DNA of 64,000 nt, from assembly GCA_965235115.1 (NCBI GenBank), contig OZ249436.1, forward strand, positions 34,846,001-34,910,000. Reading direction: 5' to 3'. Source of the stretch: Laetmonice hystrix (Eukaryota). Both the position numbers and the translations under genes were made by a program. Positions 9,048-53,632 of the stretch are shown piece after piece. Every line of letters begins with the position of its first letter. Within the stretch, counting starts at the first letter, position 1. A model generated the notes under the pieces. The model was not told the DNA's origin, did not search any database, and was given only the letters and a program-made list of their open reading frames with translations.

Positions 9048-10362
9048 ATGGCAGACTTGTTCTACTACCCCTACCTGGCAACGCCTAGGGCTGAGTGTCC
9101 AGGTACAGTATGAATTTGGAAACAGGGCCTAAGGGTGACTTTAACGTAAGGACCGAGCCTATAGATAGGTTAGGGCTCTATATAGCTAGCCTACGTGGCG
9201 TGTTACATCTTCCTCAGTCTGTTACCCCGTAAAGCTAGATGTATTTTTAATTATCTTCCAATATTATCTTACGTACAGGTGCAACCCCTGACAACCGGGT
9301 GCAGCGTCAGCTTTGCACTGAACCCCTCGCGAAGCGTCAAAGACGTAGCCGGACACATTTTACCTGCAGCGACATCGAGCGGCTGGAAGCGGCATTCACC
9401 CTTGACCCCTATCCCGACATCCATCTGAGGGAACTGCTCGCAGACGACATCGGCGTTTCAGAGACGAGGATACAGGTCAGTATAGTTTGACAACGTTCTG
9501 ACACCACAGCACATCTGGATCTAAGATTATAGTTTAGCGTTGTCCCTTAATGGTTTATACAATATAGACACATCATGAGCCGAATACTATACGAATAAAG
9601 AGCATAGATTCTATTTAATATCTGAAAATATTTGGTTGTTCCAGACCTGGTTCCAGAACAAGCGTCGCCGGAACAGAAGACAGTTCGGACACCGTACCAA
9701 GGCTGCACCTGTCGTTAGGCTGACTCCCGTCAGCGTCCCTCCCCCGAGAAGACGGAGCCGCGTCATCTCGCCCCAGACCAAGAGCTACATGGTCGTCAGG
9801 ACGTCAGACGGTGACGTAATGAACCACAACCACAGCGTCATCATCGACCTCAGCCTTAGGTGAGACAAACCAGATTGTCGATGGTAGATGGGACCTTGTC
9901 CTAGTAATAAAAACAGAATCATCCCTGCTGCTAAACCTAGGTCTATATCTACGCCATCTTTCCACCCTTTCCAGGCCTGCCTCCAGCGACTCCAGTGAGT
10001 CTCGTCACCCAGACGCCGACCGCCCTTTCTGGTCACCGTGGGCGACTCCCTCCAGGGCCAGCACACACACGAGGGAGCTCCGACAAACGTCCCCGATAGC
10101 GTCGCCCGAGACCACCTGCCAACAGAGTGACTCCATCCCTGAATCTCCCGGACTTTCACCGTTCGTCTTCAGTCCTAGGTCGTCCAGCCTCCTGGACCGC
10201 GCCAGTAGCGGCTTGAACCTCGTCTTCGTCTTCCCAGAGGTGACGTCACTGCCAGCAGACGAGGAGCTAGCAGCGGTCAAAGTTGAAGACGTTGAGGCAC
10301 CATCCCCGGGGTACGCGAGCTGTGACTCAGACTGTGGCAGTCCAATCAACGTCTGCGACTGA
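9048..10362 (+). CDS. Divergent PRD-class (Q50 paired-like) homeobox transcription factor, ~284 aa. Exons 9048-9102, 9279-9475, 9645-9859, 9975-10362
   Basis: Homeodomain QRRSRTHFTCSDIERLEAAFTLDPYPDIHLRELLADDIGVSETRIQ|TWFQNKRRRNRRQF has P26, W48, F49, Q50, N51, R53 and the PRD-class phase-0 intron between codons 46 and 47. All four exons join in frame (855 nt). AATAAA at ~10412 and ~10459. Confidence 0.9.
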
Positions 10363-13387: not shown

Positions 13388-16300
13388 ATGAAAATGGCTT
13401 CCTGTGGGACTGGCTTCCTGATAACGTGTTTGCTGTTGATGACGGCTGGTAAGTTACTCTAGTCATGTACAACATATAACCTTAGTCACTTTGGTGGTGT
13501 TAACACGCAAGTTACTCATCAGGAAAATATATAAACGGTGAATTACATTACATTTAGTACATACAATGTGTAAACGTAACAGAACAAGGGGCGCCTCCTG
13601 AAGGTTTTTATATTATTGCCGGATGGCTGCTAATTTCTTTTCCTATTTATACTTCTTAAAATGATACATTGCAAATTAATTTTGCACATAATATGAAATA
13701 TTCTGGCACATATTTTTCATTGTATCTCCGGCATCGTCGCTGCATGCATGCCTCAAACAGCTAGTGATCGCTTGATTGTTGACCTTATAGAGGATACGGG
13801 TTCTTAATTACTGAATATTTGCTTGTGAAGTGAGAAAAACTTTGCCTTCTATATGTGACCCCTATGGTTAACGAAATAGTGGCATGGAGTGAAGTTCGGT
13901 AATAAGCTGGTAAGCTGGTAAGTTACTCGTCATGATTATAGAAACACCTTTCGCAGTGCAGATTTTGGCCTCTTTCATGAAAGCAAAGCCTTTCTCATAT
14001 AAACATTTTTTATAAATATATATCTACACAGGGGAGCCTTGAATGATATTGTTAGTAGCGCGCAGAGGGCAGATCTATAGCAACCTCTAATCGTAACCTA
14101 TACCCGCTCGACTCTAACCCTGACCCTCTGAGGTCGACGGTTCTCTAAACACACAGTGACATACACAGTCACTTAACACTTGATACCCCTATCCTCATGT
14201 ACCGCCCTGACCCAACCAGGTGTGCCAATGATCCCCGCCCAACCCGCACCAATGGCGAGCTGCGCCCATAGCCCGGCATAGGGAAACGTTTGGACGTCCA
14301 AAGTCGAGTAGAATCACTCAAATGGTCACTGGGTGCGAATTTACCGTGTGCCGAGCACTTTGATTCGCACTTGATTGATGGGTGTGAAAATATTTCAATA
14401 CCTGGAACCTGTTTCATGTGTCATGGCCTATATCAGGGTCCAGCCGTGGCATGGTGGCACTTAGGTTAAAACCATTCACTTCACCCAGAATAACCCACAA
14501 ATGAAATGTTTGCCGTGCCAATGATACTAGAGTGAGGGTTCACTGATGCTGATGGTTCTGACGGTCGGTCAGTGCTCGTATCAGTGACGCTGCACTCAAG
14601 GAGTACGTCATCAAAGAACCTCGATCGACGTTCTTTGACGTCATGCAGTCAGAGCCGAACGGTGAAAACGGAAGTTGGTGCATTCCCGTTCCTTACACAA
14701 TGTTCCATTCCTGATGTCACTTTCGTACGGGAAATCCCGATGGCCCAGCTATAGGAATGTTATCGAGAAACGTAATACAGTGAGATACGCACAATTACAA
14801 GCACACGCGAGAAACATTTATCCTATTTACCGACGTTAGGGTAAACTTGTATGTGTACAGTACATGTGTAGGCCGGCTACATAAAGCTTCTTCCATGTCT
14901 GCACAAGTACTTGTCCGTGGAAGCCAATGCCAGGCTTGTTCGTCGAGGCAGACGCGCCATAGGTCTACCAGTGGTATCAACAGTCTCTTTGTATAGTCTA
15001 TACATCGGTGCCCGTGGCGATCTCTTTCTCTTACCGCTTGAACTTACGCAGGCGTGGATCCAGGGGGCGCAGGGGGGCGCTTTTTTGAAGAAGTGACAAA
15101 GATTTTTGGTAGGCTAGGTCTAAATGCTTTGAGAAACTTTCGACGTGCCCCTCTGTGGTCATTTCCGTAACAGTTTCTATCTCCAGATGCCGGGAAGAAC
15201 TATTGTTTTATTGTCATTCGAAATTCAGCAATTTCCTTGGGGAGGACCCCCAGACCCCCCTCCCACTCGCGCATGTTCGCCTCACACTAGGGCGCCTCCT
15301 TTCGTGTAGTGCTGATTACACATACTCGTGTGTAAGGGGTGGGGACACCTCCCCTCTAAGTTCACAAATTTTATCATTCATTTTAGAAAAACTTTGTTAT
15401 AAGATATTTCTCTTTTTCGCTCGTCGAATTTAGTATATAGTGTGACACGCGGAAAGATTCCTTTCCATGTATGAATCACCACATTTATGCTGTTTCCCCC
15501 TATAACGTGAACCAGAACGTGCATGTTTTCAATCGTCTACCTGAATGTGGTTAAAAATGAATAACTCTGTTTTAGTCGAGAGTGCAAAAAGGTCTTAAAA
15601 TAGGACTTCCTGCACTGATTAAAGCCTTTTCATCGCACATATACAATACAGTTTTGAGGAAGTTTATCTGAGCTTTACAGATTTATTAAAGCTACACTTC
15701 ATGCCCTATCTGTGAATCTGTTGGAAACGGTTGTAAATTTTGGTAATGTAAATAATGCAATTTCGTTAAAATGATCTGACTGTGTCGCTCAACGTTCATT
15801 ATTCCGGACCGGACAGGGTTTTTTTCATCAAAGTTGTGGTTTCAACCAGAAAATGTCATTATACCAACGTATTCAATAACACAATAGCTGCTATTCAAAT
15901 GCCATAGTTGTATTTAGGTGTTTGTTCCTTTGTCACACAATTTCTATACGTATAGGGCCACCTCACAGGGAGGTCACGCAGGCAGGGCCATGGCTTGCCT
16001 GTACAACTATAGCGGCGTAGTTATCAGACCTAATATATTCTATGGGTTAGGAGCTCGTGTTTAGCTCGTTATTCTCTCCAGCTGGGTCCTTTCTGACACT
16101 GGAAGGGGCCACTTCTAGGAAGACCGTGTATAAATGACCCCTCGCAAAGTATCTGTGAACATCGGGTGCCTCTCAGTGAGATCTCACACCTGCCAGTTGT
16201 GAAATATTGCCCATGGATGGATCAGACCCAAGAGGCCTGTGCTGCCATATAATACTGTGGTAAGTGTCTTCAGTGACAGCACGACAATCATAGACTGATG

Positions 16301-16974
16301 ATCCACGTTCAAAAAACATGACATACATTTCTAACCCCTCCTCGCCCCCGCCCTATCAGCAAGAAAAATACAGTGGCTTGTATCTGATTCAACATTTCAC
16401 ATGCACATAATGAAATTTAATTACTACGTCCTCAGCCCCAGGAATTACGCGTCCTCATTGCGTATAGAATGGCAGGCCCCATTTTGACAAATGTCAACAC
16501 ATTCAAAAGCAGAAACGTAAAGTAATTGGCTTTATGCCATGGGCTCTAGCCCCTTTCCTAATTTGTCAGCTACACTGTCACGGATTAGCAATATCACCTA
16601 GCTTGATAAATGAAGATCACTGCATGACATAATGCACACAAACCGTTAACGTAATTAAAACCAAGATTGGCAATGATACTGTACATGTCTCTTGGGGTGT
16701 ACAGCAGGTCATTCCAAACATGAATGATTTATGGTTGGGACTTATCATCACCCCAGTCTTGATTAGTGGTCGTGCTTAAACAGCTTCATAATATAGGTTA
16801 TATTTCGAATATATGTTTCAATTAAATCCTCAAATTTTCATCAATTGCGGCATTATTAGAAAGTGTTGTAATGTTTGTTATAATGTCCTAAAGTGACGTA
16901 GTGTGTGATTGACGGTCGCCGTTGGAATTAACAATTTTTGAGGTCGTTCAAGCACCCTGACAAATTGATTTTGG

Positions 16975-17067
<93 letters not shown>

Positions 17068-20000
17068 CCTCCCTCTCTCTCCTTCTCTCTCTCTCTCTCT
17101 CTCTCATTTATCCGGCCCTAGCGTCTGTCTGTACCTCATCATTTTGTTACTTGATTTTTCTGTTTTGAAGGAGAGGATACATGCGTTGATATAGAGTAGG
17201 TCAGATACCCAACCTCCTGGTATCACGGAATGCACGCCGAACATGACGCACGTCATGAGGCAGCAATTACGGCACGCCACATGACGTCTCAACAACCAGC
17301 AGACGTCGTCATCTTAACGGATCTAGTAGAGTTATACTATAGGCTACCGTAAACCGTCAACATTATTACTGCCAGCCTCTTCAAACTATAAAAACGTAAA
17401 AAGGAGGTACAGGTCTATCATAAACACAATTTTCTACTGTGTATGAGCACTTGGAAGAACATTTGGTAGCTATTATAATAGGCCTACCCAGAAAACCTTT
17501 TTTACACACTGACTCAGGGGCACTTCTCCATCCAAACATGATGACATTTACAGAAACCTTGGATGTCGGCGTTTCTTCGCTCAACCAAACTTCTTCTTGA
17601 CTTTCAAGGAAACAAAAAGTTCTCGCATCAGAAAAAGTTTACCTGACGCGAATAAAATGTGATGGTCTTGGCATCATTCCTAGAGGTCATGTAAAGCGGA
17701 TATACTGCGGGCAACAGACATTGGCTGTACTATCTCTATCTGTAGACGTCCAAATATTAGTACGGTAAATAACTTGTACAATCAGTCTCATGTGAATAGC
17801 GCGTTATATGTGATACATTATTGGTATAGGACTATGATTAATTCACGAATGTAGTAGCCAAAGTTTGCATTAACACGCCCATAGTGGCAGACTTTTAAAA
17901 TCATGTAATAGCTATATAGCCTACATGTCTATGGCTGTATAGATCCTTCATTTAGATACAATAAGGGGAATTTCATGGGAGTACTGTAGGCATGGATTTC
18001 GCAGTTCAAAAGACTATTGCATTATCAATGCGTTATAGCAGGTGTACATTAAGAATACATAGGCACATCCGCGACACTGGACACCAATTTTTATGACTAC
18101 CACCAGAAACAGAAGCCCCATTAGGGTGAAGTTGCCACTCCATGTAGATAGCACGGAGAAATCTCTCATGTATATTTGATGGAATCAAGTGTAGGGTAAA
18201 CGCCACATCACCACTGTCAATGACATAATATGACAGGCGCACACACTGGTGTTTCGTGCCACGCTTATTGGTTATCTGTTTATCTGTGCGGGGGTGGGGA
18301 AGGGGATGGGGTGCGCCTACAAGCGAAATGCAACCCTTTCGAACAGAGCCCGGTGTCGGGTTGGTATGGTACATGCAAGAGGGGGGTTTCAGGCCTACAC
18401 TGAAAGGTCTGTATTATAACACATCTCAGCAGTATTTTTAATAGTACTACATGTACTAGTATAATCCCGGTAAGTCTGGAAGGGGTAGGTTATAGAAGTA
18501 TAGGTTATAGGAGTACAGTCAGTAACTGTTTGGATATTATGCATTCTTGTAGATAACCAAGGCCATTAGGGCTTTCATGGAAGGGCAGGGATCCGCCCCC
18601 GCCCCCTGTGTGAATATTGCATGATTTTATCTGTCTCAAAGACCTATATATGCATAAATTTGAAATGCTAGGAAGTAAGAATGATTGACCTCGGCCTAGG
18701 CTTATCTGTGTTTTGATTGGGGGCTCCTTGTGGTATCTTAGTCCTTGGGGAAGCCCCCCCCCCCTTTGGCAAAGGCAACCTTAGATCCTTACTGCTACAG
18801 ACTATGTACGCTTTGACCATCTGGGTGAATGTTGTGCACCAGTGATGTGAGAACAAAATTACTAGTCCATTTCCCTGGAGACTTTGGGAGCATTTACCTA
18901 GACAGTTGTCCTGCAGTAATACAATACAACCGCTCATGGCAGAAACAGGGAAAACAAAGCTGACTATGCGGACTCCCTCTTCAAACTGGTTGAGTCTACA
19001 TCACAAGTTTACTTAGTCTTAGGATGCTCGTGCCCTCGTCACAGACATCCAAATAAAAGGCAATCACTTCTAACTGCATGACTCTGTGAGACTACATGGT
19101 CAATGTATGGATGACGATTACACGCTATAAAACGTTTAGACTCTCCAGTAGACCTACCATTATATCGGAGGTAGGTCATTGAGAATGACTTAAATGGTTC
19201 GACATCAAATGGCCCATTATGGTACGTGAGATGTGGTGGATCCATAATTGATTTCTCTTATATCTTACATCCAGTCGTAGAACATTCTGTTATTATTATC
19301 ACAGAACCGAGAGATAGTCCTGATAGAAGTATATAATTACAGGGGCCTACTGCACAATATCTATCCTGGTATCGACGTACTGGGGCCTTCTGCACAATAT
19401 CTATCCTGATATAGACGTACAGGGGCCTTCTGCACAATATTAATCCTGGTAGACGTATTACAGGGGCCTACTGCACAATATCAATCCTGGTAGGCGTATT
19501 ACAGGGGCATACTGCACAATATCAATCCTGGTAGGCGTATATAATTACAGGGGCCTACTGCACAATATCAATCCTGGTAGGCGTATATAATTACAGGGGC
19601 CTACTGCACAATATCTATCCTTGATGGGGGATTTTTAACGCAGGTTATACACGAGATATAATAGCCCCGTTTTCATCGACAACATTGAATCCTCTATTTT
19701 GCGGCGGGAACTAACCTAACTAACTTATACCCTAGTCACACTAGAGGCGGAATGAACCGGAATGCCGTCGGAATGAAAGTTCTTTGTACATTCCTGGATA
19801 TTCGAAGTGAATTCTAAATATTCTGACTGCATTCTGAGTGCATTCCAAATATTCGGGCCCATTCTTGTTGGCGGCCCGAATGTTTTGCTCATGCTCAAAA
19901 CTTTCGAGGTGCATTCGAAGTGGAGAAATATCGAACGGCATTCGAAATGTATTCTAAATGCACTCTGACTGCATTCTAAATATTCTTACGGCATTCCAAC

Positions 20001-23000
20001 AGCATTCGAAACATTCTGATCGCATTCGAGGAAAAATCGAAAAGGCAAGCCACTTTAAATCCTGCCAGAATGTCCCGAATGAGCCTCGAATGAGCCGGAA
20101 TGCACCTCGAATGCATCTCGATTGCTGCCGGAATCTATACTCGGGACATTCTAAGTACATTCGAAGTACATTCCAAGTATTTCAACTGCATTCTGTTTAA
20201 ATTCTTGGACGTTCGAACCATATTCGGCTGCCATTCTGGGAGCGTTCTGACTGCATTCGAGGTGAATTCGTACAGCATTCGAGGCACCTTCCAACTAGAC
20301 TTCGGGCGGTATTTGGACAGCAATCGAACCGCACTCGTACGGCATTCGAGGTGCATTCTAAATATTCTGACTGCATTCTAACAACATTCTAAATATTCCT
20401 ACTGTGTTCCAACTACATTCGAGCTGCATTGGAGAGCTAATACACCCAGAATGTGCAAGAATCATTCGAGGCGGGTTCGAAGCGCATTCTAAGTATTCGA
20501 ACGGCATTCTTACAAAGCTGTAAGAATTTTGGTCAATTTGAAATTTGCTCCCGAATGTGGCGCGAATTTTGAGTATTCTTCATTCCGGCTGGTTCTGCTT
20601 GATTCCTGCTGATTCCGAATAAGTGTGACGGGGGTATTACTGACCTAACGTATTGACCTAACCCATTTGTTACAGAGCCCATCGTCTGTTACTGACCTAA
20701 CGTAATGAACTAACCCATGTCTATCTCATGTCACAGAGCCCATCGTGTCTGTTACTGACCTAACGTATTGACCTAACCCATGTCTATCTCATGTTACAGA
20801 GCCCATCGTGTCTGTTACTGACCTAACGTATTGACCTAACCCATGTCTATCTCATGTCACAGAGCCCATCGTGTCTGTTACTGACCTAACCTATTGACCT
20901 AACCCATGTCCATCTCATGTTACAGAGCCCATCGTGTCTGTTACTGACCTAACCTATTGACCTAACCCATGTCTATCTCATGTCACAGAGCCGATCGTGT
21001 CTATTACTGACCTAACGTATTGAACTAACCCATGTCCATCTCATGCTACAGAGCCCATCGTGTCTGTTACTGACCTAACGTATTGACCTAACCCATGTCT
21101 ATCTCATGTTACAGAGCCCATCGTGTCTGTTACTGACCTAACGTATTGAACGAACTCATGTCTATCTCATGCTACAGAGCCGATCGTGTCTATTACTGAC
21201 CTAACGTATTGACCTAACCCATGTCCATCTCATGTCACAGAGCCCATCGTGTCTGTTACTGACCTAACGTATTGACCTAACCCATGTCTATCTCATGTTA
21301 CAGAGCCCATCGTGTCTGTTACTGACCTAACGTATTGACCTAACCCATGTCTATCTCATGTCATAAAGCCCATCGTGTCTGTTACTGACCTAACGTATTG
21401 AACTAACCCATGTCTATCTCATGTTACAGAGCCCATCGTGTCTGTTACTGACCTAACGTATTGACCTAACCCATGTCTATCTCATGTTACAGAGCCGATC
21501 GTGTCTATTACTGACCTAACGTATTGAACTAACCTTTGTCTATCTCATGTTACAGAGCCCATCGTGTCTGTTACTGACCTAACGTATTGAACTAACCCAT
21601 GTCTATCTCATGTTACAGAGCCCATCGTGTCTGTTACTGACCTAACGTATTGACCTAACCCATGTCTATCTCATGTTACAGAGCCCATCGTGTCTGTTAC
21701 TGACCTAACGTATTGACCTAACCCATGTCTATCTCATGTTACAGAGCCCATCGTGTCTGTTACTGACCTAACGTATTGACCTAACCCATGTCTATCTCAT
21801 GTTACAGAGCCCATCGTGTCTGTTACTGACCTAACGTATTGACCTAACCCATGTCTATCTCATGTCACAGAGCCCATCGTGTCTGTTACTGACCTAACCT
21901 ATTGACCTAACCCATGTCTATCTCATGTCATAAAGCCCATCGTGTCTGTTACTGACCTAACGTATTGACCTAACCCATGTCTATCTCATGTTACAGAGCC
22001 CATCGTGTCTGTTACTGACCTAACGTATTGACCTAACCCATGTCTATCTCATGTCATAAAGCCCATCGTGTCTGTTACTGACCTAACGTATTGACCTAAC
22101 CCATGTCTATCTCATGTTACAGAGCCCATCGTGTCTGTTACTGACCTAACGTATTGACCTAACCCATGTCTATCTCATGTCATAAAGCCCATCGTGTCTG
22201 TTACTGACCTAACGTATTGATGACCTAACCCATGTCTATCTCATGTTACAGAGCCCATCGTCTGTTACTGACCTAACGTATTGACCTAACCCATGTCTAT
22301 CTCATGTCATAAAGCCCATCGTGTCTGTTACTGACCTAACGTATTGAACGAACCCATGCCCTTCTCATATTATAGAACCGATATGGTCCGTGTACGACCC
22401 GGGGACTCGCCTAGCGAGGATTCTGTTTAATGATTACATGGCCGACATCATCCCGAACTGTACCAACGAACTTGTCCGAGTGAAGGTGGGCATGGCACTC
22501 CGGGGAATCCTCGATGTGGTACGTATATCTACGTCAAAGGTCTACGTCATTTACGTCATGACGTCATTTCTGGTGTTAGCCTCCCAAAAAGTAAAACATA
22601 TGGGGGACTTTTAGGAGGAGACTATTATTATTCAATGGCAAGTTTGGGTGGGGTTCTCTGCCTGAGAACCTTATTCGCCAATGGTATTCACTGCTGCAGA
22701 ATGATCGACATTGATATCAATATCTATCCCGTGCTTTTAGCGGTAAAATTAATATTGGTGAGAAATCCAAGGTATTGATATTATATAAGTCTGATCGTAA
22801 ATTTATGGACATTATTATGGCCCCATGCTTCAAGTCATAAAGACGTAGGATGACTAGAGAAGTGCGTTACTCGACTGAAATTGCGTTTGCTGTGTTCCCT
22901 GCCCTTGCATTACCAGCTAATAAAGGAATATAGGTTATCTGGTTGATAACTGTCAAGGAGCGAGCTAAATGAGAAGACTGTGCGGGCTGCGATAAGTGAG

Positions 23001-26000
23001 AGTTTACATTGGATGTTGCCATCCTGAATAAACATCCGCATAAAGACAGCATACAGTAATACAGGCGACTTCTAGAGACTAGCAGCACGAAATGACCACC
23101 AGTGATGACGTGAACATCAATATCATGGCCCCTGAATAATTTTGATTTGTCTGAAACTTTTATTGACATATTTTTGCACACACAACCGAGCGGAGGAGAC
23201 GCAGGGAAGGAAGCGGAAAGAGACAGGCAAAAAGAAGGTGGTTGAAGAGTGTTTAAATGATCTCGTGCTATGTCAACCGATGTTTTGAAGTTATCAAATA
23301 CATCCCTGTCAGGACAGACATTAATGTTTGCCTACATGGTGAAATATAAACCTGTAGCAGGCCTCGAGTAGAACGCTCACTCCGACCGTTGTCGTGGCGC
23401 TTTCAGCCATGGCGGTATCATGTAACAACTTCCGGTAAATTCAAGACTGCGGCACACTTTAACAGTGCCCACCTATCTGTTCAATATCAGATCGAAGTTG
23501 ACATGCACACCAAAAGACAAACGCCACATTTACGTCCCAGAATATAGAAGGCCTAGGTATAAAAGATATGCATGTAGGCATACTGACAGTAAAGTATTAT
23601 GTAGTGCGTAGAATGTCATCTAAACCAAACACTGTTTGCTCATCTCTGCTATAGCTATACGCGTGTGACGAACGTTTCTATAACATAGTCTCCCCATGAG
23701 TTTGTGAGCACGTGAACGTGAAGCACATTAAGCGTGCCATAAAGCTATCATAATTTTAACAACGTAGCAGAACAGACATATATAACCTCGCGGTACGAAA
23801 GTGTAAGGATAGAAGGTTTTGGAATCAGGATATCTAATTTATTGCTCCATGGGTAGGCCACAGGCAACAGACCACATAGTGAGGCTATTCTTCAGGAGTG
23901 AAAGATTCTCATAATCGTATCACCCGTAATTGTAATCTATGGATTCACATTACTCGAAGATGGGCCCTCCAACTGGAGGAGTTAAAGTAATAATCTATAA
24001 TTTCTTCCTTCTTCCCCATCCCAGCCGTATTCGTAATCATCTGCATTTTAACTACGCCGCTGCTGGTCCCAACTTTAGTACAATATAAAGATTGCTTGTT
24101 GTCTGTCTGATATCATGAACAAATACATGCAGAGCAAACATTAGCGTTCCATTGATAACAAAAAGTTTATTGTACCACGGAAATTGGCGGAATATGATAT
24201 TGGTTCCTTCTTCGGGTGAAGAATCTATGTTCTATGTGTAACTGCTTTATTAGCCCGACTTCAACCAGACCAGCTTTAATATTGGATAACTCTCTGGCGA
24301 TAACTTGAGTACTCAATGGTTAATATGGGGCAATACATGACGTCGAGTCAACTAGAATTCCTCCTTGTGGATTGCAGTCATAAAGCCTTCGTATTTATAG
24401 ATATTGTTATTCTCTGCGTGGCACACATGGATTTCAATCCTTCCAGTACCATTTTTTCTCTCCGGTGTTCCGCAAATGGGTCATCAAAGGCTTTGAACTG
24501 TCCAGCTCTGTCTGTGCGACCGGGCATATAAAAGAACCCGTGCCATTTTTCGAGAAGGGTGGGGATTGCTACAGGTGACAGGATTCTTTCTCACTTCATC
24601 CTGGTCATCACCCACCCCTTGGGACCCGGGGTAAAATAGATCTTTAATAGCGAGAGAGGCCAAAATGCAGGATTGCTCCGCTTGGCGGAGGCAGGGCCTA
24701 TCCGCTCTACTGAGCGCCCTTTAGTTTTTATACTCTATACAAAGTGACAACCAATTGTTTTTCCAGGACGAGCCCAGCCAGATTGTGAAGGTTACAGTTT
24801 GGTTGCGTATGGTATGTAAGATTTAAGGAAGCTATAAAGCTCTCAACCCTCTGTGTAAATTTTCTCACATAGGCTGTTTTGTGATTCTGTATCTTTTAAA
24901 ACAAAATTCTAGATGTGTAAGAGATTAAAAACGTCATCAGCACGTAAGCTTTACTTACTGAGTACCGACTCCTTGTTCCCCCTTCCCTTACCCGTACCCG
25001 CCGGTGTGGACCCACAGGAGTGGATGGACTGTCGCCTGGCCTGGAACCAGACTGAACATTCACTGCCTCAACTGGTCGTCTCTAGTGATCGAATCTGGAT
25101 TCCAGACATAACCCTGTTTGACAGGTAGGCAACCTTGCGAGGTTAAACTTTTTGTGTGCATGCATTTGCTTACTGGCATTGGTCCTGAAATACGAGGTTC
25201 CCAATCTCCCAGTAAGTTTGGGGCGTTACTTCGAACCAATCTTGAGAATACTCCAACTGATGTATACTATATGGTATACATCTGTGCTTATAATCGATGC
25301 TTTAGTAAGCAGAGATTGTAAGTTACCTACGTAGTCTTCCAGTGAACTTATATATGTGCACTGCCACCTATAGTACATGTATATATTTAATATGTGTTTT
25401 AATGTGGTTAACAGCTCAAGCGTTAGGCCTATAACATAAGTTGACCAAAAGCAATGGAAAGTTCTTACCTAATTATAGTGACCTGCTTTAATGACTGTGC
25501 ATGCTCCAAGGACAGATATTGATCCCTATAGAAATAAACTCATTTTGTTGTCATTCTCTTTCGTTGAGCTCATTATTATTGACGGAGGTGTTAATTGTCA
25601 AAGGTAATTATTTATCCGTGCTACGGCACATGTTGCCTGTGTCACTGTAGATAGGATTATATGTGTACGTCTTCCTCCCATCAGGTATATAAGAAATAAT
25701 TACAGCTTGTCAAGATCACATTAAATGTAAACCCGTCCAGTAGTTATAACCTCTCCGTTTCTTGTTAATCACTATATTCTTTCTGACCAATACATCAAAG
25801 CCGCTGCTATCTATAAGATTATAATTAATAGTCAAGCATGGAGACAATTATGTCCTATCAAGTTGAGACATTGTAAAACCCGATTGACGTTTATCCATAT
25901 ACCGTAAAGGGCATGAATAACAATTCCTACCCATAACCTATCGCTGATTGTCATGTTTCCACAGTTCATATGTAGTATCCAAAATTAAACATTTCTCTAG

Positions 26001-29000
26001 CAGAGGAAACAGGGACTTGCACAGGCAGAAAAAGCATGAGTCAGCCTTAGAGTCCAACAGACATCAAAATTTACATGAAATTTAGTGCCAGATCCTGATG
26101 GAACATGTAATTTGTTGTTGTTAAAACTTAAAGGAGCGGTTATTGTACAAGAATATGAACTGTGTGTAAGCCGTTTTACAGACCAATTCCCCTAGTGACG
26201 TCATCAGGGGCAATGGTAAAGAATAGGCAGGAGTGAGACTGTGATGAGGCGCGAGATTCGAATTTTCAATATTTTTCTAAATTGAGAGGACTTCTCAGAA
26301 AACCTATCAGGGATACGGCTACAACTCAAAGTGATCTATCTAGATCAGTAAAGTTACCTATGTGATGTCAGTTGCACTTTAACCCATGGTACAATCTTTC
26401 TATAGATTTTCAAGACCCTTTATGCTTTTAGGAAGGAAAATCAAATTGGAACTTTTCAATAGTTTTACAATGTGTCCCTTGAAGTCACGCTGTCTATAGT
26501 TCACCAGAAACTTTGCTAAGTAAGTGTACAAATACAAAACCATTTTTTTAAATTTAGGCACAAATGGCAGAACTTGCATGGTTAGGCCTACAATACAAGT
26601 TCGGTACAATATTTACCGACTTAAATGTGGCGTGTTCCAGTCGCTGGCGATTAACATCGCCTATATGGGCATAAAGCACACAACTCTTCATTTCTTTCTT
26701 TCATTTCTTACTCTACCGTCCACGCTATATTCTAACACAACCTCCCTTGCAACCTTGCTGCTATGCACCTTTACTCAGCAAGCTTCCGGTGAACAACACA
26801 TGCATGCACTACTCAACAATAGCCTGTGCAGGGGAAAATAATTGTAAAGTCCGCCATTCAGGAATTAGAATATGCCTACTTGCCTACACATGATTTTGTG
26901 TAAATAAACCGTGTAGGCCTATCTTCATGATTAGTGGATATCATATGGCGAAGGTAATTCTTGAGTGCATCATGTGCTCGAGGCGGAGCAGAGGCGTGAC
27001 CGACTCATGCAATATTTGCATTAGTTCGTTACTGCCCTTAATTGAATAACGAGTAGGCCTATTCTAAAGAAACTTGGTGTCGGACTTTGAGTTTGTATGC
27101 TGACAGGTACCCATGTGTGGGTTTCCCTCTGATATAGCAGCACAGGTCAAGGATTGGAAGGAGTAGGACACTACTGCCCGATCATCTATCCCAGCGGCAA
27201 GGTTTTCTTCATGGCACCCGCCATCATAGACTTCTCCTGTAAGCTAGATGTCACCTACTTTCCTTACGACCGTCAGCGATGTCGAATAAAGGTTGGTTGC
27301 AGTGACGTAGGCCTAGCTACAAGCCCCCTACTTAGACTACTGTTTCAGCGTCTCGGACTTTTCTATAATGCCTACCATCCGGTACCAAACACTTAAACTT
27401 CTTTAAACTTAGGCTACCCAGCTGTTTATTAAATCACAGTTTCAATAAATGTTATGTGTAGACCTAGTCTAGGGCCTACTATAGGCCTATAGGCCTACCA
27501 ATATCTGAAATGTAACGGCTTTCCGTCCAATCTGGAGACATGTAGGCCGTAATTTGAGGTATGCCTATAGGCCAAATATGCCTATAGGCCTACATGTTAG
27601 ATGAACACAAATTAGGCCTCATAATGTGTCTGATAATTCACGCTTCAGTTCGCGTCCTGGTCACATGACGGTCACGAGATGGACGTCACAAACCGCTCTG
27701 CCGCCGGCGACACGTCCGTGTTTGTTGACAACGGCGAATGGAACCTTCTGGGCGTCCCCGTACGACGTAACGTCGTCTACTACCCGTGCTGTGACGAGCC
27801 CTACCCTGACGTCACATTCTATCTCGTTATCCAGCGCCAGTTCCTCTATTACTTCTTCAACCTGGTCATGCCGTGCGCCCTGATCAGCGGCATTGCCCTC
27901 CTCGTGTTCTGTCTGCCTCCAGAGTCAGGCGAGAAGATTTCACTAGGCATCACCGTCCTCCTCTCGCTCTGCGTCTTCCTGCTCATGGTGTCAGAGCGCA
28001 TGCCCGCCACCTCGGAGACAATTCCTCTTATTGGTAAGGTCACATGTTCCTTTGTCGCTTTGGCATCAATGTAGGCCCAATTCATGAATATCACAGGGGC
28101 ATCAATGTAGGCCCAATTCATGAATATTACAGCCCAAAGTTTTGGACCTAAATTTCTCTCTAGCTGGCGCATGGCTCAGAGGTCCATGATATTTCAAAAA
28201 GCATCCCAAATTGTGGACCTGTCTTTCCTATATGCCTCCCAAATTCCGGACCTTTTGGGGTTGTCAAAATTTAAGGGGGGGGGGGCAATGCTCCATGATA
28301 AGTACGGCTTTGTATTGGCCTAGGCTAGTAGGCCTAATACGCCCAAGTTAGCTACTTTCAGGAGCGACGTAACCGTAAATTTCTATTGCCTATGATAGAC
28401 TCTACGTGCCTTTTTGTTCTTGTCAGCGCGGTACTTTGCGGCGACCATCGTGCTAGCGTCAGTTTCCTGTGGTATGACGGTGATTGCCCTGAACGTCCGT
28501 CACCGTGGTGCAGCAGACCAGACGGTGCCGTCTTGGGTCCGAACTGTTGTCATCCGGGGACTGGGCAAGCTCCTCTGTATTGGCCCCAGCAAGGTATAAC
28601 TGCTTTCTTCAACACTTTCTGAATAATTGATAGTGTATTTAGGTAAAGGGCATTTAGCCATGACCTCTTGGGATTGGGGCATTTGGGGCCTAAAGATCTT
28701 AAACAACAGTGTTTGTCACTGACTGGGTATAAGGAAGATCTGCCTATAGAATTAAAAAAACAAACACACACAAAAACAGTGGCGTGTAGGTTAGGCGTAT
28801 AATAAAGTTGGACTTGCTATTGTTCTGCAGGCAGACCCTCACAACAATGACGACGAGCCCCACGTCCTGAACCCGCTCCTCTCTCCGCCTCTCGCCATTA
28901 ACTGCAACGACAAGACAGACGGGCGACCGGCCCACACAGACGTCCCAGCTTCTGGAAACAGCCGCGTCGAGGCGCTGATGGAGGAAGCCGTTCGTCTGCT

Positions 29001-29217
29001 CCGCGGGATCGCGCAGCGTTTCAAGGAACAGGACAGGAAGGAGAACGTCTCAAACGAATGGAGGACAGTGGCCATGGTTCTCGACCGGCTTTTCTTCTTC
29101 ATCGCCACCATTTTGGTGGTGGTTGTGACAGTGGCCATACTGACTGCATCGCCAGATCCGGAAGACTGGCAGGACCTGTCCTGGGCAGACAATGTACAAA
29201 TCAACACCCATCAATGA
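13388..29217 (+). CDS. Nicotinic acetylcholine receptor alpha-type subunit (alpha7/9/10-like, cation-selective), ~482 aa. Exons 13388-13448, 22376-22518, 24767-24811, 25018-25124, 27138-27291, 27649-28033, 28427-28593, 28831-29217
   Basis: Signal-peptide exon MKMASCGTGFLITCLLLMTA (least certain exon). Typical 45-nt DEPSQIVKVTVWLRM exon, WIPDITL, Cys-loop CKLDVTYFPYDRQRC, loop B FASWSHDG, loop C YYPCCDEPY with vicinal Cys, PPESGEKISLGITVLLS (TM2), EWRTVAMVLDRLFF (TM4). Exons sum to 1449 nt in frame. Confidence 0.93.
16978..17104. repeat. (CT)n microsatellite
   Basis: Long, slightly interrupted CT run. Confidence 0.95.
19330..19622. repeat. Minisatellite, ~40-46-bp unit, ~7 copies
   Basis: Repeated tacaggggcctactgcacaatatc(a/t)atcctggtagg... 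Confidence 0.9.
19728..20636. mobile_element. PIF/Harbinger-like non-autonomous element in nAChR intron 1
   Basis: TIRs TACCCTAGTCACACT / AGTGTGACGGGGGTA. 3-bp TSD TTA at 19725-19727 and 20637-20639. Interior built of gcattc/cgaatg subrepeats. Confidence 0.75.
20637..22394 (+). repeat. 63-bp tandem array (~27 copies) whose last unit is the functional acceptor of nAChR exon 2
   Basis: Unit gttactgacctaacgtattgacctaacccatgtctatctcatgttacagagcccatcgtgtct. The terminal unit reads ...cccttctcatattatag|AACCGATATGGTCCGTGTAC. Confidence 0.95.
24471..24560 (+). mobile_element. SINE central-domain remnant (Meta-SINE-like)
   Basis: tcatcaaaggc...ctgtctgtgcgaccgggcatataaaagaacccgtgcc...gagaaggg resembles the GCATATAAAAGA(T/A)CCC core of invertebrate SINEs. 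Recalled similarity, not searched. Confidence 0.35.
28062..28131. repeat. 36-bp tandem duplication in nAChR intron 6
   Basis: ggcatcaatgtaggcccaattcatgaatat(c/t)acag occurs twice in tandem. Confidence 0.85.
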
Positions 29218-32738: not shown

Positions 32739-34308
32739 TCAGAAGACTTTCCACTTGTGCCGAATCTTCATTATCTGTCGCTTCCTGGTCAATTCTGCTT
32801 TCCGCAGCCTCCTCCAGTAGGCGTATGTGTCGTGGTCTATCTCCTCAATGGGCACTGGCCTCCGATCAGTATGTAGTGTCCATAGCCAATCAGGATACTC
32901 GCTGTCATCCTTCAACTCTGGATCAGTACCTTCCTTCATAATGTTACCACCACACAGCATGGTTGTCAGTTTCTTGGTGTCTGTCTCAATATCTTCATAG
33001 TGCTTCTTTGGGTCTGCACCTACATGTGCCAAAGTCTTTCCTGCAATTAATACAAATTTTTATGAAGTTAAAAGAATCTATAATATAGATTGAAAACTTT
33101 ATATAAAAAAAGAACTTGGCTTGTACAATTCTCTTTTTTTTGTACAATAAGGGCATTTCTGCAAATTGCAATCAAAAGAAGTCTGTCATTCCTGACATTG
33201 GAAGAGACAAGTTGGTCATTCTGCCATCAAAAATCGGACCTAATGCTATCTGCGAGGTGAGGCTCGTAGGGGATTCTCCTACATCCGACTAATGCATGCA
33301 GTCCTTTCGGAAACCACGCCTCTGGCTCTGGGCCTGGCCATGCGAGCTCAGCCTCAGGGCCCGGTTCCGTTGTGCAATTTATGTGAGCTGAGCAGCACTT
33401 TTCGTGAGCTGCTCACGGTCCACCGGTTCCTTTGTGTACTGTGAGCAGTGCTCACCGTGAGCTTTGCTCACGAAATTGCCGTGAGACTTGAGCAAGCTAA
33501 GGAGGATGCTCACGGTGTCGTGAGCAAGCGTGAGCAAGGGAGAATTTCACTCAAATTTACATATTTTTTTTCTTCCTTTCTTTTACTTATTTTGACCACG
33601 GGGAGCAGAATGTTGTTCTCCAGAAGCCTGTAAATATCGTTTCTGAAATTAAAAAGGATTTCTAGAGCAGCCTGTTGCTGAAAATACTCTGACAGTGTCC
33701 ACTCTGTCCCATATGGCAGTGTCACATTGTGGCCGCAGGCACACGCGTTATTGTGACGTTAGAAATGAGGCCCTATTGTTGTATCTAGAACAGTTCCAAA
33801 AGTATTGTGACGTCACCATATCTGGGTGATGACAATAAACTGTTACGTCATATAGTCTATCCATAGTTACGGTGTCTTGCTCACCGTGAGCAAGTGCTTA
33901 TGTGAGCAAGTGCTCAGGGTAAACAAAGGAACCCGATTTACTGCTCACGGTGAGCACTGCTCACGTAAGCAGTAAACTGCTGCTCAGCTCACAACATCTC
34001 AGCTCACGGAAAGAGGTAGACAACGGAACCGGGCCCAGTGCAGATCAGACAGAGTCTGAGAGTGAGAGATGACAGCCAGACACACTGGCCAGCAGGCCCA
34101 GAGATAGACTCTATTACTAGTAATTTAGATCTACTGTATTAGAACATTTACTCACGGATTACTGTTCAAAACTTTCGTTACCTGGTGGTTTTTTAACAGC
34201 ATAGCCAGCGTGTGAATTTTGCCAAATTGGTCCTACTTGACAGACGACAGAAGCAGATTTAAATAGATGATATTGCCGCACCACGACCCTCGCCATGGCC
34301 GCAGCCAT
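32739..34308 (-). CDS. MRPL54: Mitochondrial large-subunit ribosomal protein mL54, ~142 aa. Exons 34308-34182 and 33040-32739
   Basis: Presequence-like MAAAMARVVVRQYHLFKS... joins through a phase-1 intron to the family signature CGGNIMKEGTDPELKDDSEYPDWLW...YWRRLRK. Confidence 0.92.
33358..34035. mobile_element. Harbinger-type MITE in the MRPL54 intron
   Basis: Perfect TIR GGCCCGGTTCCGTTGT, 3-bp TSD CAG, and many subterminal GCTCAC/GTGAGC repeats. Confidence 0.85.
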
Positions 34309-35009
34309 CTTGAAACACAGGCAGAGATTAAAGCGCGCAGTATATAAATAGGACACGATATGGTTCAGGGACCGGACTGTTTGAAAACGTGCACCCAGTC
34401 ACTAAAAAAATCATATTTCTTACTGTGATCGGCGGACTTTGTTTCTGAAAGGGACTAAACATTTCTGCCATTCAGGCCTTCAGAGCCCCCCCCCAATAAA
34501 AATTGATTATCTTGTTTACTTTCAAGTGCATTTATTTCAATGATCGACGAGGAGACGCTTTTTGGAGCACTCGGTCAAGAATATTGGAATGGGTACCCAC
34601 TCCAATATTCTTGAATCGGTCACCAAGTTACTAAGTAACGCCTACCTAAAATTCATGTTGCCCTTCTATCACTAGTCTCTAACTATAGCTATGTGTCATA
34701 TATGTGCTAATTATATGTTATCAAAGCCCTCTTCTAACAGAAGACCTCATTTTATTAGGCCTACCTTGCAATGCCAATGGTGGTTCTTGCTTTTATTTCT
34801 CCATAATATGACATCTAATTAAACTATGTGCAATATTTTACAGCGGGAAGCTAAGAACCATCAATAGTTATCTAAAATTTCTAAAAGTCTAAAGGGCGTT
34901 CTCTGAATGTGAAGAAAATAAATGATAAAAGTAGACATCTATTCCTCCTTTCACTTCCGTCGCTTTCTTGTTTGTTGATATTTCAGTCGCGCGAATGAGA
35001 TTATTCAAT
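34309..35009. promoter_or_regulatory. Bidirectional promoter region between MRPL54 and AFG2B
   Basis: Start codons diverge ~700 bp apart. Both sit in YY1-like AA(G/T)ATGGCTGC contexts. ETS-like CACTTCCG at ~34952. Confidence 0.6.
34576..34613. mobile_element. 38-bp near-perfect palindrome, probable transposon footprint
   Basis: CAAGAATATTGGAATGGGT|ACCCACTCCAATATTCTTG (one mismatch), flanked by ACTCGGT / AATCGGT. Confidence 0.55.
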
Positions 35010-39693
<4,684 letters not shown>

Positions 39694-48695: not shown

Positions 48696-51470
48696 GATGT
48701 CTGTGTATCGGACCCACAAATTGTAATGTCCGCTTTTGATATAGGATGTCTGTGTATCGGACCCACAGATTGTAATGACCTCTCAAAATGTGATGTCTGT
48801 GTATCGGGCCTACAGATTGTAATGACCTCCCGCGACAGGATGTCTGTGTATCGGTCCTCCAGATTCTATAATGTGATGTTGTGTATCGGTCCTACAGATT
48901 ATAATGTGCTGTCTGTGTATCGGTCCCACAGATTATAATGTGCTGTCTGTGTATCGGTCCCACAGATTATAATGTGATGTCTGTGTATCGGTCCCACAGA
49001 TTATAATGTGATGTCTGTGTATCGGTCCCACAGATTATAATGTGATGTCTGTGTATCGGTCCCACAGATTATAATGTGATGTCTGTGTATCGGTCCCACA
49101 GATTATAATGTGATGTCTGTGTATCGGTCACTACAGATTATAATGTGATGTCTGTGTATCGGTCCCACAGATTATAATGTGATGTCTGTGTATCGGTCCC
49201 ACAGATTATAATGTGATGTCTGTGTATCGGTCCCACAGATTATAATGTGATGTCTGTGTATCGGTCCCACAGATTATAATGTGATGTCTGTGTATCGGTC
49301 CCACAGATTATAATGTGATGTCTGTGTATCGGTCCCACAGATTATAATGTGATGTCTGTGTATCGGTCCCACAGATTATAATGTGATGTCTGTGTATCGG
49401 TCCCACAGATTATAATGTGATGTCTGTGTATCGGTCACTACAGATTATAATGTGATGTCTGTGTATCGGTCACTACAGATTATAATGTGATGTCTGTGTA
49501 TCGGTCACTACAGATTATAATGTGATGTCTGTGTATCGGTCACTACAGATTATAATGTGATGTCTGTGTATCGGTCACTACAGATTATAATGTGATGTCT
49601 GTGTATCGGTCACTACAGATTATAATGTGATGTCTGTGTATCGGTCCCACAGATTATAATGTGATGTCTGTGTATCGGTCCCACAGATTATAATGTGATG
49701 TCTGTGTATCGGTCACTACAGATTATAATGTGATGTCTGTGTATCGGTCACTACAGCTTATAATGTGATGTCTGTGTATCGGTCACTACAGATTATAATG
49801 TGATGTCTGTGTATCGGTCCCACAGATTATAATGTGATGTCTGTGTATCGGTCCCACAGATTATAATGTGATGTCTGTGTATCGGTCCCACAGATTATAA
49901 TGTGATGTCTGTGTATCGGTCCCACAGATTATAATGTGATGTCTGTGTATCGGTCCCACAGATTATAATGTGATGTCTGTGTATCGGTCCCACAGATTAT
50001 AATGTGATGTCTGTGTATCGGTCCCACAGATTATAATGTGATGTCTGTGTATCGGTCCCACAGATTATAATGTGATGTCTGTGTATCGGTCCCACAGATT
50101 ATAATGTGATGTCTGTGTATCGGTCCCACAGATTATAATGTGATGTCTGTGTATCGGTCCCACAGATTATAATGTGATGTCTGTGTATCGGTCCCACAGA
50201 TTATAATGTGATGTCTGTGTATCGGTCCCACAGATTATAATGTGATGTCTGTGTATCGGTCCCACAGATTATAATGTGATGTCTGTGTATCGGTCACTAC
50301 AGATTATAATGTGATGTCTGTGTATCGGTCACTACAGATTATAATGTGATGTCTGTGTATCGGTCACTACAGATTATAATGTGATGTCTGTGTATCGGTC
50401 ACTACAGATTATAATGTGATGTCTGTGTATCGGTCACTACAGATTATAATGTGATGTCTGTGTATCGGTCACTACAGATTATAATGTGATGTCTGTGTAT
50501 CGGTCCCACAGATTATAATGTGATGTCTGTGTATCGGTCCCACAGATTATAATGTGATGTCTGTGTATCGGTCACTACAGATTATAATGTGATGTCTGTG
50601 TATCGGTCACTACAGATTATAATGTGATGTCTGTGTATCGGTCACTACAGATTATAATGTGATGTCTGTGTATCGTTCCCACAGATTATAATGTGATGTC
50701 TGTGTATCGGTCCCACAGATTATAATGTGATGTCTGTGTATCGGTCACTACAGATTATAATGTGATGTCTGTGTATCGGTCACTACAGATTATAATGTGA
50801 TGTCTGTGTATCGGTCACTACAGATTATAATGTGATGTCTGTGTATCGGTCACTACAGATTATAATGTGATGTCTGTGTATCGGTCACTACAGATTATAA
50901 TGTGATGTCTGTGTATCGGTCACTACAGATTATAATGTGATGTCTGTGTATCGGTCACTACAGATTATAATGTGATGTCTGTGTATCGGTCCCACAGATT
51001 ATAATGTGATGTCTGTGTATCGGTCCCACAGATTATAATGTGATGTCTGTGTATCGGTCACTACAGATTATAATGTGATGTCTGTGTATCGGTCCCACAG
51101 ATTATAATGTGATGTCTGTGTATCGGTCCCACAGATTATAATGTGATGTCTGTGTATCGGTCCCACAGATTATAATGTGATGTCTGTGTATCGGTCCCAC
51201 AGATTATAATGTGATGTCTGTGTATCGGTCACTACAGATTATAATGTAATGTCTGTGTATCGGTCACTACAGATTATAATGTGATGTCTGTGTATCGGTC
51301 ACTACAGATTATAATGTGATGTCTGTGTATCGGTCACTACAGATTATAATGTGATGTCTGTGTATCGGTCCCACAGATTATAATGTGATGTCTGTGTATC
51401 GGTCACTACAGATTATAATGTGATATTTGTGGATCGGTTCTACATATTATAATGTGATGTGATGTATCTG
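48696..51470. repeat. Satellite array, 34/35-bp unit (~75 copies), preceded by a few longer degenerate units
   Basis: Unit gatgtctgtgtatcggt(cc/cact)acagattataatgt. Confidence 0.97.
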
Positions 51471-51479
51471 GACCCACAC

Positions 51480-53632
51480 TGAGATTGTAATGACCTCCCG
51501 TGATAGGATGTGTGTGTATCGGGTCCACAGATTGTAATGACCTCCCGTGACGGGATGAGTGTGTATCGGGTCCACAGATTGTAATGACCTCCCGTGATAT
51601 AGGATGAGTGTGTATCGGGTCCACAGATTGTAATGACCTCCCGTGATAGGATGTGTGTGTATCGGGTCCACAGATTGTAATGACCTCCCGTGACGGGATG
51701 AGTGTGTATCGGGTCCACAGATTGTAATGACCTCCCGTGATAGGATGTGTGTGTATCGGGTCCACAGATTGTAATGACCTCCCGTGATGGGATGAGTGTG
51801 TATCGGGTCCACAGATTGTAATGACCTCCCGTGATAGGATGTGTGTGTATCGGGTCCACAGATTGTAATGACCTCCCGTGACGGGATGAGTGTGTATCGG
51901 GTCCACAGATTGTAATGACCTCCCGTGATATAGGATGAGTGTGTATCGGGTCCACAGATTGTAATGACCTCCCGTGATATAGGATGAGTGTGTATCGGGT
52001 CCACAGATTGTAATGACCTCCCGTGATATAGGATGAGTGTGTATCGGGTCCACAGATTGTAATGACCTCCCGTGATGGGATGAGTGTGTATCGGGTCCAC
52101 AGATTGTAATGACCTCCCGTGATATAGGATGAGTGTGTATCGGGTCCACAGATTGTAATGACCTCCCGTGATAGGATGAGTGTGTATCGGGTCCACAGAT
52201 TGTAATGACCTCCCGTGATGGGATGAGTGTGTATCGGGTCCACAGATTGTAATGACCTCCCGTGATGGGATGAGTGTGTATCGGGTCCACAGATTGTAAT
52301 GACCTCCCGTGATATAGGATGAGTGTGTATCGGGTCCACAGATTGTAATGACCTCCCGTGATAGGATGAGTGTGTATCGGGTCCACAGATTGTAATGACC
52401 TCCCGTGATATAGGATGAGTGTGTATCGGGTCCACAGATTGTAATGACCTCCCGTGATATAGGATGAGTGTGTATCGGGTCCACAGATTGTAATGACCTC
52501 CCGTGATATAGGATGAGTGTGTATCGGGTCCACAGATTGTAATGACCTCCCGTGATAGGATGAGTGTGTATCGGGTCCACAGATTGTAATGACCTCCCGT
52601 GACGGGATGAGTGTGTATCGGGTCCACAGATTGTAATGACCTCCCGTGATAGGATGAGTGTGTATCGGGTCCACAGATTGTAATGACCTCCCGTGATATA
52701 GGATGAGTGTGTATCGGGTCCACAGATTGTAATGACCTCCCGTGATGGGATGAGTGTGTATCGGGTCCACAGATTGTAATGACCTCCCGTGATAGGATGA
52801 GTGTGTATCGGGTCCACAGATTGTAATGACCTCCCGTGACGGGATGAGTGTGTATCGGGTCCACAGATTGTAATGACCTCCCGTGATGGGATGAGTGTGT
52901 ATCGGGTCCACAGATTGTAATGACCTCCCGTGACGGGATGAGTGTGTATCGGGTCCACAGATTGTAATGACCTCCCGTGATGGGATGAGTGTGTATCGGG
53001 TCCACAGATTGTAATGACCTCCCGTGATGGGATGAGTGTGTATCGGGTCCACAGATTGTAATGACCTCCCGTGATGGGATGAGTGTGTATCGGGTCCACA
53101 GATTGTAATGACCTCCCGTGATAGGATGAGTGTGTATCGGGTCCACAGATTGTAATGACCTCCCGTAATGAGTGTGTATCGGGTCCACAGATTGTAATGA
53201 CCTCCCGTGATAGGATGAGTGTGTATCAGGTCCACAGATTGTAATGACCTCCCGTGATATAGGATGAGTGTGTATCGGGTCCACAGATTGTAATGACCTC
53301 CCGTGACGGGATGAGTGTGTATCGGACCCACAGATTGTAATGACCTCCCGTGATATAGGATGAGTGTGTATCGGGTCCACAGATTGTAATGACCTCCCGT
53401 GATGGGATGATTGTGTATCGGGTCCACAGATTGTAATGACCTCCCGTGATGAGTGTGTATCGGGTCCACAGATTGTAATGACCTCCCGTGATATAGGATG
53501 AGTGTGTATCGGGTCCACAGATTGTAATGACCTCCCGTGATAGGATGATTGTGTATCGGGTCCACAGATTGTAATGACCTCCCGTGATGGGATGAGTGTG
53601 TATCGGGTCCACAGATTGTAATGACCTCCCCG
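51480..53632. repeat. Satellite array, 47/49-bp unit (~45 copies), related to the 34-bp array
   Basis: Unit cagattgtaatgacctcccgtga(ta/tata/tg/cg)ggatgagtgtgtatcgggtcca. Confidence 0.97.

Follow-up and report, generated by a model that had tools for sequence, protein, structure and literature searches.

The exon 2 acceptor of a predicted nicotinic receptor gene lies at the right-hand end of a minisatellite array (positions 20637–22375, + strand) made of 63-bp units, 27 of which start upstream of the exon. Positions refer to the window, i.e. the whole 64-kb stretch of DNA that was analysed. We propose, with a probability of about 0.78, that this array is a tolerated 'mirage' minisatellite, the upstream copies of which are intron filler. 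Three of its features are those of mirages: the unit spans an intron–exon boundary, an AG is present in many but not all units, and a homogenised interior is bordered by a diverged unit. This reading is favoured by a homology between unit and boundary that exceeds chance and by the combination of a homogeneous interior with a diverged end unit, as observed in mirages. The evidence that points the other way comes from the strength and position of the decoy acceptors and is presented below.

A boundary-derived array in a receptor gene

The host gene is predicted from its sequence to encode a nicotinic receptor subunit of the alpha type, with best matches in annelids. The gene model comprises eight exons on the + strand (13388–29217), separated by introns that are all GT–AG, and contains an open frame of 482 amino acids. 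Its exons match PF02931 and PF02932 in Pfam, and the Cys-loop ligand-binding and transmembrane domains are both present. Loop C reads YYPCC in the model, and we take these vicinal cysteines to be the mark of an alpha subunit. The best match of exon 6 is found in Ridgeia piscesae (76%), Lamellibrachia satsuma also being among the best relatives, and an unusual sequence in exons 2–3 is common to the receptor and its relatives from these two species, which makes an annelid the probable host. Predicted exon 1 (13388–13448, + strand) would encode a signal peptide; it ends at a phase-1 donor (GTAAGT at 13449), gives an open frame and is the most hydrophobic of the 47 ATG-to-donor candidates between 10400 and 20636. 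Exon 2 (22376–22518, + strand, 143 nt) has an open frame and matches the siboglinid orthologues P0001 and P0002 with 52% and 46% identity, respectively, over the aligned part. Exons 3–8 (24767–24811, 25018–25124, 27138–27291, 27649–28033, 28427–28593 and 28831–29217, all on the + strand) are defined by GT–AG borders, an open frame and Pfam matches, the largest internal exon being 385 nt long. Since the last of the 50 AGs of the array region is the only one that gives an open frame and exon 2 matches its orthologues, the gene is intact; from these same two observations, we infer that the functional acceptor is the 22376 site.

Three further observations concern the gene and its surroundings. 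At 25100–25124, PDITLFD is found in the receptor, as opposed to LYN in most relatives, and LFD is also present in the two siboglinid orthologues; the tyrosine of LYN, in loop A, belongs to the agonist site. Ligand binding may thus be altered in this annelid subfamily. A near-perfect tandem duplication of 36 bp (28062–28132) lies 29 nt past the exon 6 donor, which it does not include. Upstream of the receptor, a homeobox gene (PF00046) is present on the + strand at 9186–10359.

The extent of the array in the assembly was determined in two ways, which agree with each other and bear out the roughly 27-fold amplification of the exon 2 acceptor, as a 63-bp array, put forward in an initial annotation of this DNA. 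TRF reports a period of 63, 27.1 copies and 94% matches over 20668–22376, and the unit register places the array start at 20637, with 27 unit starts (20676 to 22313) before the exon start at 22376. Each unit is made of a copy of approximately 15–24 nt of the exon start together with a copy of the intron end, in which the motifs CTGAC/CTAAC are present and the tract is 65% pyrimidine, an ordinary value for the window (47–82% in 16 predicted acceptors). The units are 63 nt long in 24 of 27 cases, two being 61 nt and one 66 nt long. They fall into 15 distinct types, nine units being identical to the consensus, and the interior 63-nt units show 0–5 differences as compared to seven for the last one. 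This diverged last unit forms the true acceptor region (22337–22375, + strand), with its TAG at 22373–22375 and no AG between 22315 and 22373. Within the window, no other copy of the array unit was found.

The unit resembles both sides of the intron 1/exon 2 boundary. Its consensus is identical to the true intron end at 32 of 39 nt and to the exon 2 start at 14 of 24 nt, a score equalled at 0.05% of the ~62,000 window positions; a shorter comparison with the exon start (10/16 nt) is equalled at 0.14% of the positions, and best-prefix tests give 0.001–0.01. At the protein level, six of eight residues are identical in register, whereas even a score of 4/8 is attained at just one of the 3568 other AG sites. 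More specifically, EPIVSV in the units corresponds to EPIWSV at the true exon, a TGA follows in frame, and the exon 1 donor is at 13448/13449, all as annotated initially. Four of the seven intron differences of the last unit recur in interior units, a count that disregards the apparent matches of the shortened first unit, which are register artefacts. Unit and exon differ mostly at third codon positions (6/8 vs 4/15; Fisher p 0.037), as would be expected if both lineages drifted and selection was maintained on the exon. The identity of the unit as a boundary copy therefore holds above chance by both nucleotide and amino acid tests. The direction of copying would have been from the boundary to the array. 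Among 50 candidates for closer orthologues, three passed, and their N-termini do not align to EPIWSV.

Could the likeness be fortuitous, the array being an ordinary intronic minisatellite that happens to abut the exon, or could its length be due to over-expansion in the assembly? The exon-side match is indeed short, its end was chosen after looking, and the most cautious test gives 0.01. Nevertheless, a chance likeness does not account well for the protein match, which is in a fixed register. As to an artefact, the 15 unit types are arranged in ordered patterns, there is no N anywhere in the 64-kb window, and the contigs of all three runs of one sample, which may be the assembly's own, contain array units as well as a specific variant junction. 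We consider either explanation very unlikely.

According to the preferred reading, that of a tolerated mirage, a 63-bp stretch over the intron 1/exon 2 boundary would have been duplicated once, probably by slippage between two short, similar sequences, TACTGACC at the left edge of the array (intron) and TACGACC at offset 17 of the exon. The array would then have grown and been homogenised by unequal exchange, leaving behind a diverged end unit and a diverged exon.

Decoy acceptors and the choice of the splice site

The initial annotation attributed a YACAG to every unit and counted some 26 acceptor-like sites. This is correct for 22 of the 27 units, which carry an in-register CAG (20676–22252, + strand), but not for the five others, where the motif is TAA. 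A second AG is found two bases on in each unit, and the upstream AGs number 49 in total. Splicing to any of them (49/49) would lead to a premature stop, at codons 27–32, in agreement with the original proposal, and the resulting peptides would end after 26, 27 or 31 residues. The stop had been placed in the frame EPIVSVTDLTY*; this applies generally (31 residues), but not to the two 61-nt units, which yield 26 residues. A coding use of the array, as a cassette exon, was considered and discarded: only 27 of 1438 AG–GT pairs are stop-free, and all of them are 6 nt long.

Acceptor strength was assessed with a matrix derived from 16 acceptors predicted by frame continuity in the window, one candidate having been dropped because of a motif mismatch. 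On this weak matrix (leave-one-out scores of 0.7–9.9 bits; 54 of 329 intronic AGs score no lower than the true site), the consensus decoy scores 7.0 bits vs 4.4 bits for the true site, and, among the intact decoys, 21 of 22 score higher than the true site and one equals it. The decoys also contain four branch-point-like motifs, as compared to two at the true site. Thus, the units are acceptor-like, as annotated, all 22 intact decoys scoring at least as high as the terminal site. That the decoys equal or exceed the true site in score and have two more branch-point-like motifs argues against their being merely tolerated. Weak as it is, the matrix offers no indication that the choice is governed by local strength.

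Acceptor position, not strength, probably decides which site is chosen. The exon starting at the true site is 143 nt long, whereas the decoys would give exons of 267–1843 nt; the nearest intact decoy, 22252, lies 124 nt upstream of the true acceptor and would give the 267-nt exon, the second nearest giving one of 396 nt. In the mechanism that we propose, the spliceosome would take the acceptor nearest to the exon 2 donor, through exon definition or proximity, and any leak from the nearest intact copy would yield a dead peptide of 26–31 residues. The idea that the spliceosome bypasses the upstream decoys one by one is unsupported. Duplicated globin acceptors, as summarised in PMC1557585, do not point in a single direction, the proximal copy being used in one study and the opposite being found in a second; overall, the published cases tend towards use of the proximal site. 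Note that the gene contains an internal exon of 385 nt, so that exons of 267 and 396 nt are in range and competition from the two nearest decoys is plausible. This observation, like the clustering of AG loss by the true site described hereafter, speaks against the tolerated reading.

The five AG-less (TAA) variants (21365–22312, + strand) precede unit starts 21367, 21934, 22060, 22186 and 22313, i.e. the 12th, 21st, 23rd, 25th and 27th, and hence occupy alternate units near the true acceptor. The unit adjoining the true acceptor is AG-less, and so are four of the last seven unit starts; 628 of 80730 permutations are as biased towards the 3' end, although the copies are not independent. The clustering suggests that decoys close to the true site may do some harm. 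Yet all five units represent one linked variant with the same three changes, the T at −3 being common with the true TAG, which indicates that AG loss was one event that spread locally, not five.

Acceptor-side mirages might then be leaky and edited by selection: near decoys would compete with the true site and cut the yield of receptor mRNA, selection would favour AG-less units by the true acceptor, and the order of the unit variants at the 3' end, perhaps together with allele length, would set the amount of full-length receptor mRNA, while total copy number would not matter. We regard this scenario, including its implication that order rather than copy number matters, as unlikely. It is consistent with the 3' clustering and with the good scores of the decoys on the window matrix, and the human 6-16 and CBS arrays, as described in PMC1557585, use their two nearest pseudo-sites. 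However, the local spread of a single mutation explains the cluster without selection, and intact decoys are still present near the exon, at 22252, 22123 and 21997. Were the leaky scenario true, a genome rich in such arrays would provide a natural experiment on 3' splice-site choice among equal copies.

The initial annotation offered a different idea, namely that copy number acts as a rheostat, more units sending more transcripts to premature stops and nonsense-mediated decay (NMD) and thereby tuning receptor dose. The stop encountered from every upstream AG is in line with this idea, and so is the ABCA7 VNTR, whose length goes together with exon 19 skipping and reduced expression according to PMC5954066; the same source indicates, however, that a cryptic site within that repeat is used to an extent unchanged by length. 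Moreover, use of the distant decoys would require exons of 0.5–1.8 kb. Since the human pseudo-sites that are used are the one or two nearest to the exon, total copy number is probably largely irrelevant. Furthermore, the premature stops lie at codons 27–32, within the first 200 nt, and NMD of the mis-spliced transcripts is uncertain because of this start-proximal position: in mammals, NMD often fails on start-proximal stops, the boundaries reported in PMC12776119 ranging from ~21 to 100 codons. Whether or not NMD acts, mis-spliced transcripts would fail to produce the receptor. Altogether, we hold a copy-number rheostat to be highly improbable. If it were true that decoy use scaled with allele structure, the array would amount to a heritable and rapidly mutating control of a neurotransmitter receptor.

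The element at the left edge of the array

A non-coding element of 909 bp with 15-nt terminal inverted repeats (TIRs; 13/15) occupies positions 19728–20636. It is flanked by TTA on both sides: the left copy of the target-site duplication is at 19725–19727 (+ strand), and the right one (20637–20639) coincides with the three bases at which the array opens. The initial annotation, which placed a MITE exactly at the left edge of the array, was right in this respect. The TTA duplication fits the 'Harbinger' assignment, and the element may be called PIF/Harbinger-like on the basis of its sequence, although a TA-duplication parse is possible too; neither of the two element ORFs tested matched Pfam. 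According to PMC4561436, MITEs of the mPing type use TTA/TAA, and Tourist-like PIF/Harbinger MITEs such as mPing are, like the element described here, non-coding and high in copy number, with short TIRs and a TTA duplication; our element differs in its length of 909 bp and in its internal degenerate repeats.

The edge was further compared with contigs over 19640–20736, i.e. the element plus the first unit, using three runs of one sample, which may be the assembly's own. The element belongs to a high-copy family, with a summed contig depth of thousands to tens of thousands vs ~30–50 for single-copy sequence, and ~35 of the 909 positions in the present copy depart from the family majority; within the window, no other copy was found. 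In all three runs, contigs have loose ends at both element termini (19724–19727 and 20637–20640). The summed depth over the first unit is ~900–2400, against the same 30–50, which is not to be read as a copy number.

One contig lacks the element (X2, depth 39.5). It joins 19707 to 20641 and continues through the first unit, of which it carries the 2-nt deletion, without the 10-nt deletion of the first partial unit of the window; the first unit is thus seen in a second form. In the bin to the left of the element, the whole depth is explained by this contig (39.5 × 31/37 = 33.1). The join is present in one contig from one of the three runs, X1 and X3 being without cover left of the element, a gap that carries no weight as evidence, and it skips 933 rather than 912 bases. 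These data point to a second allele with the array but without the element. As this contig displays the start of the array in the absence of the element, the element is not needed for the array. In the tolerated reading, the element would be present on one allele only and most likely came after the array.

Alternatively, the array may owe its origin to the transposon, repair at the right end of the element having copied the neighbouring 63 bp before the element was lost from one allele. The right TTA and the three bases that open the array are one and the same, and intron 1 minus the element contains 344 TTA/TAA sites on the + strand, of which the abutment is one, making coincidence unlikely per insertion; in addition, an exon-like remnant left of the element was not found. 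On the other side, the element-free contig carries the array start, the divergence of the element (~35/909) is far below that between the array and the end unit (7/39 and 10/24), and PIF/Harbinger elements usually excise precisely, as stated in PMC4561436, which the 933-base skip is not. We therefore judge a transposon origin doubtful and retain the order in which the array came first.

The sequence left of the element was also inspected. A candidate array remnant, an 11-nt match (10/11), was rejected, as 105 of 613 background windows score equally. A CTAAC run at 19708–19727 resembles the internal 13-nt subrepeat of the unit, a likeness that is not significant by itself; the run is the part that is missing or changed in the element-free contig. 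In the same intron, a 41/46-bp array of ~7 copies (19318–19621) ends ~105 bp left of the element.

Relation to known boundary arrays

Tandem copies of intron–exon boundaries have been named 'mirages' in amphioxus, where they affect Adh3, the globin genes BflGb6 and BflGb9, troponin C and PGBD5 (PMC3087553, PMC3902484); RT-PCR showed regular splicing there, undisturbed by the repeats. As described in PMC3087553, these arrays resemble the present one in that they are made of copies of an intron 3' end and an exon 5' start (BflGb6 being acceptor-side), in that the AG is retained in many units but not in all, in that border units escape homogenisation, and in unit length, the 63 bp found here falling within their range of 10–160 bp. 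The differences lie in the annelid-like host, in the number of units (27 vs 3–6 in BflGb6) and in the TIR element that abuts the array here. Moreover, normal splicing and length variation were demonstrated in amphioxus, whereas our array is known from genomic sequence.

Human minisatellites that span exon–intron boundaries, namely those of F7 IVS7, IFI6 (6-16), CBS IVS13, LMNB2 and PDGF (PMC1557585), likewise repeat pseudo-sites, in up to 25 copies, which are silent or used next to the exon only. All those described in that source are donor-side arrays of exact copies, whereas ours is acceptor-side and has diverged from the true site. CBS 844ins68 is a 68-bp duplication of an intron–exon boundary, through which the acceptor is repeated and stop codons are introduced; as presented in PMC11017215, it amounts to one extra copy rather than an array. 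The ABCA7 intron 18 VNTR provides a precedent for an effect of repeat length on splicing and expression, a retained unit leading to a premature stop (PMC5954066). According to the same account, however, this VNTR is donor-side with a 25-bp unit, and its length effect consists in exon skipping, not in decoy use.

Our literature search found no paper on annelid intron–exon boundary arrays and, under the name 'mirage', amphioxus cases only. The array is a further example of this known type, with strong decoys, adjacent AG-less units and a polymorphic element at its edge as local extras, and it extends a little-studied type of repeat to an annelid-like genome. With 22 acceptors that score at least as high as the true one and are set at fixed 63-nt steps, it also offers a test bed for the influence of donor distance on 3' splice-site choice.

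Two other regions of the window deserve mention. Two abutting arrays, 34 bp × 76 and 47 bp × 45, occupy 48696–53630, and 47-bp-like units are also present on the left flank; since the two arrays share a core, one derives from the other. The ORFs scanned around them match no Pfam family above its cut-off, and nothing was thus found to connect these arrays with a splice site. Finally, a mitochondrial ribosomal protein gene (PF08561, − strand) and a two-domain AAA ATPase gene (+ strand) are arranged head to head at 32742–39690.
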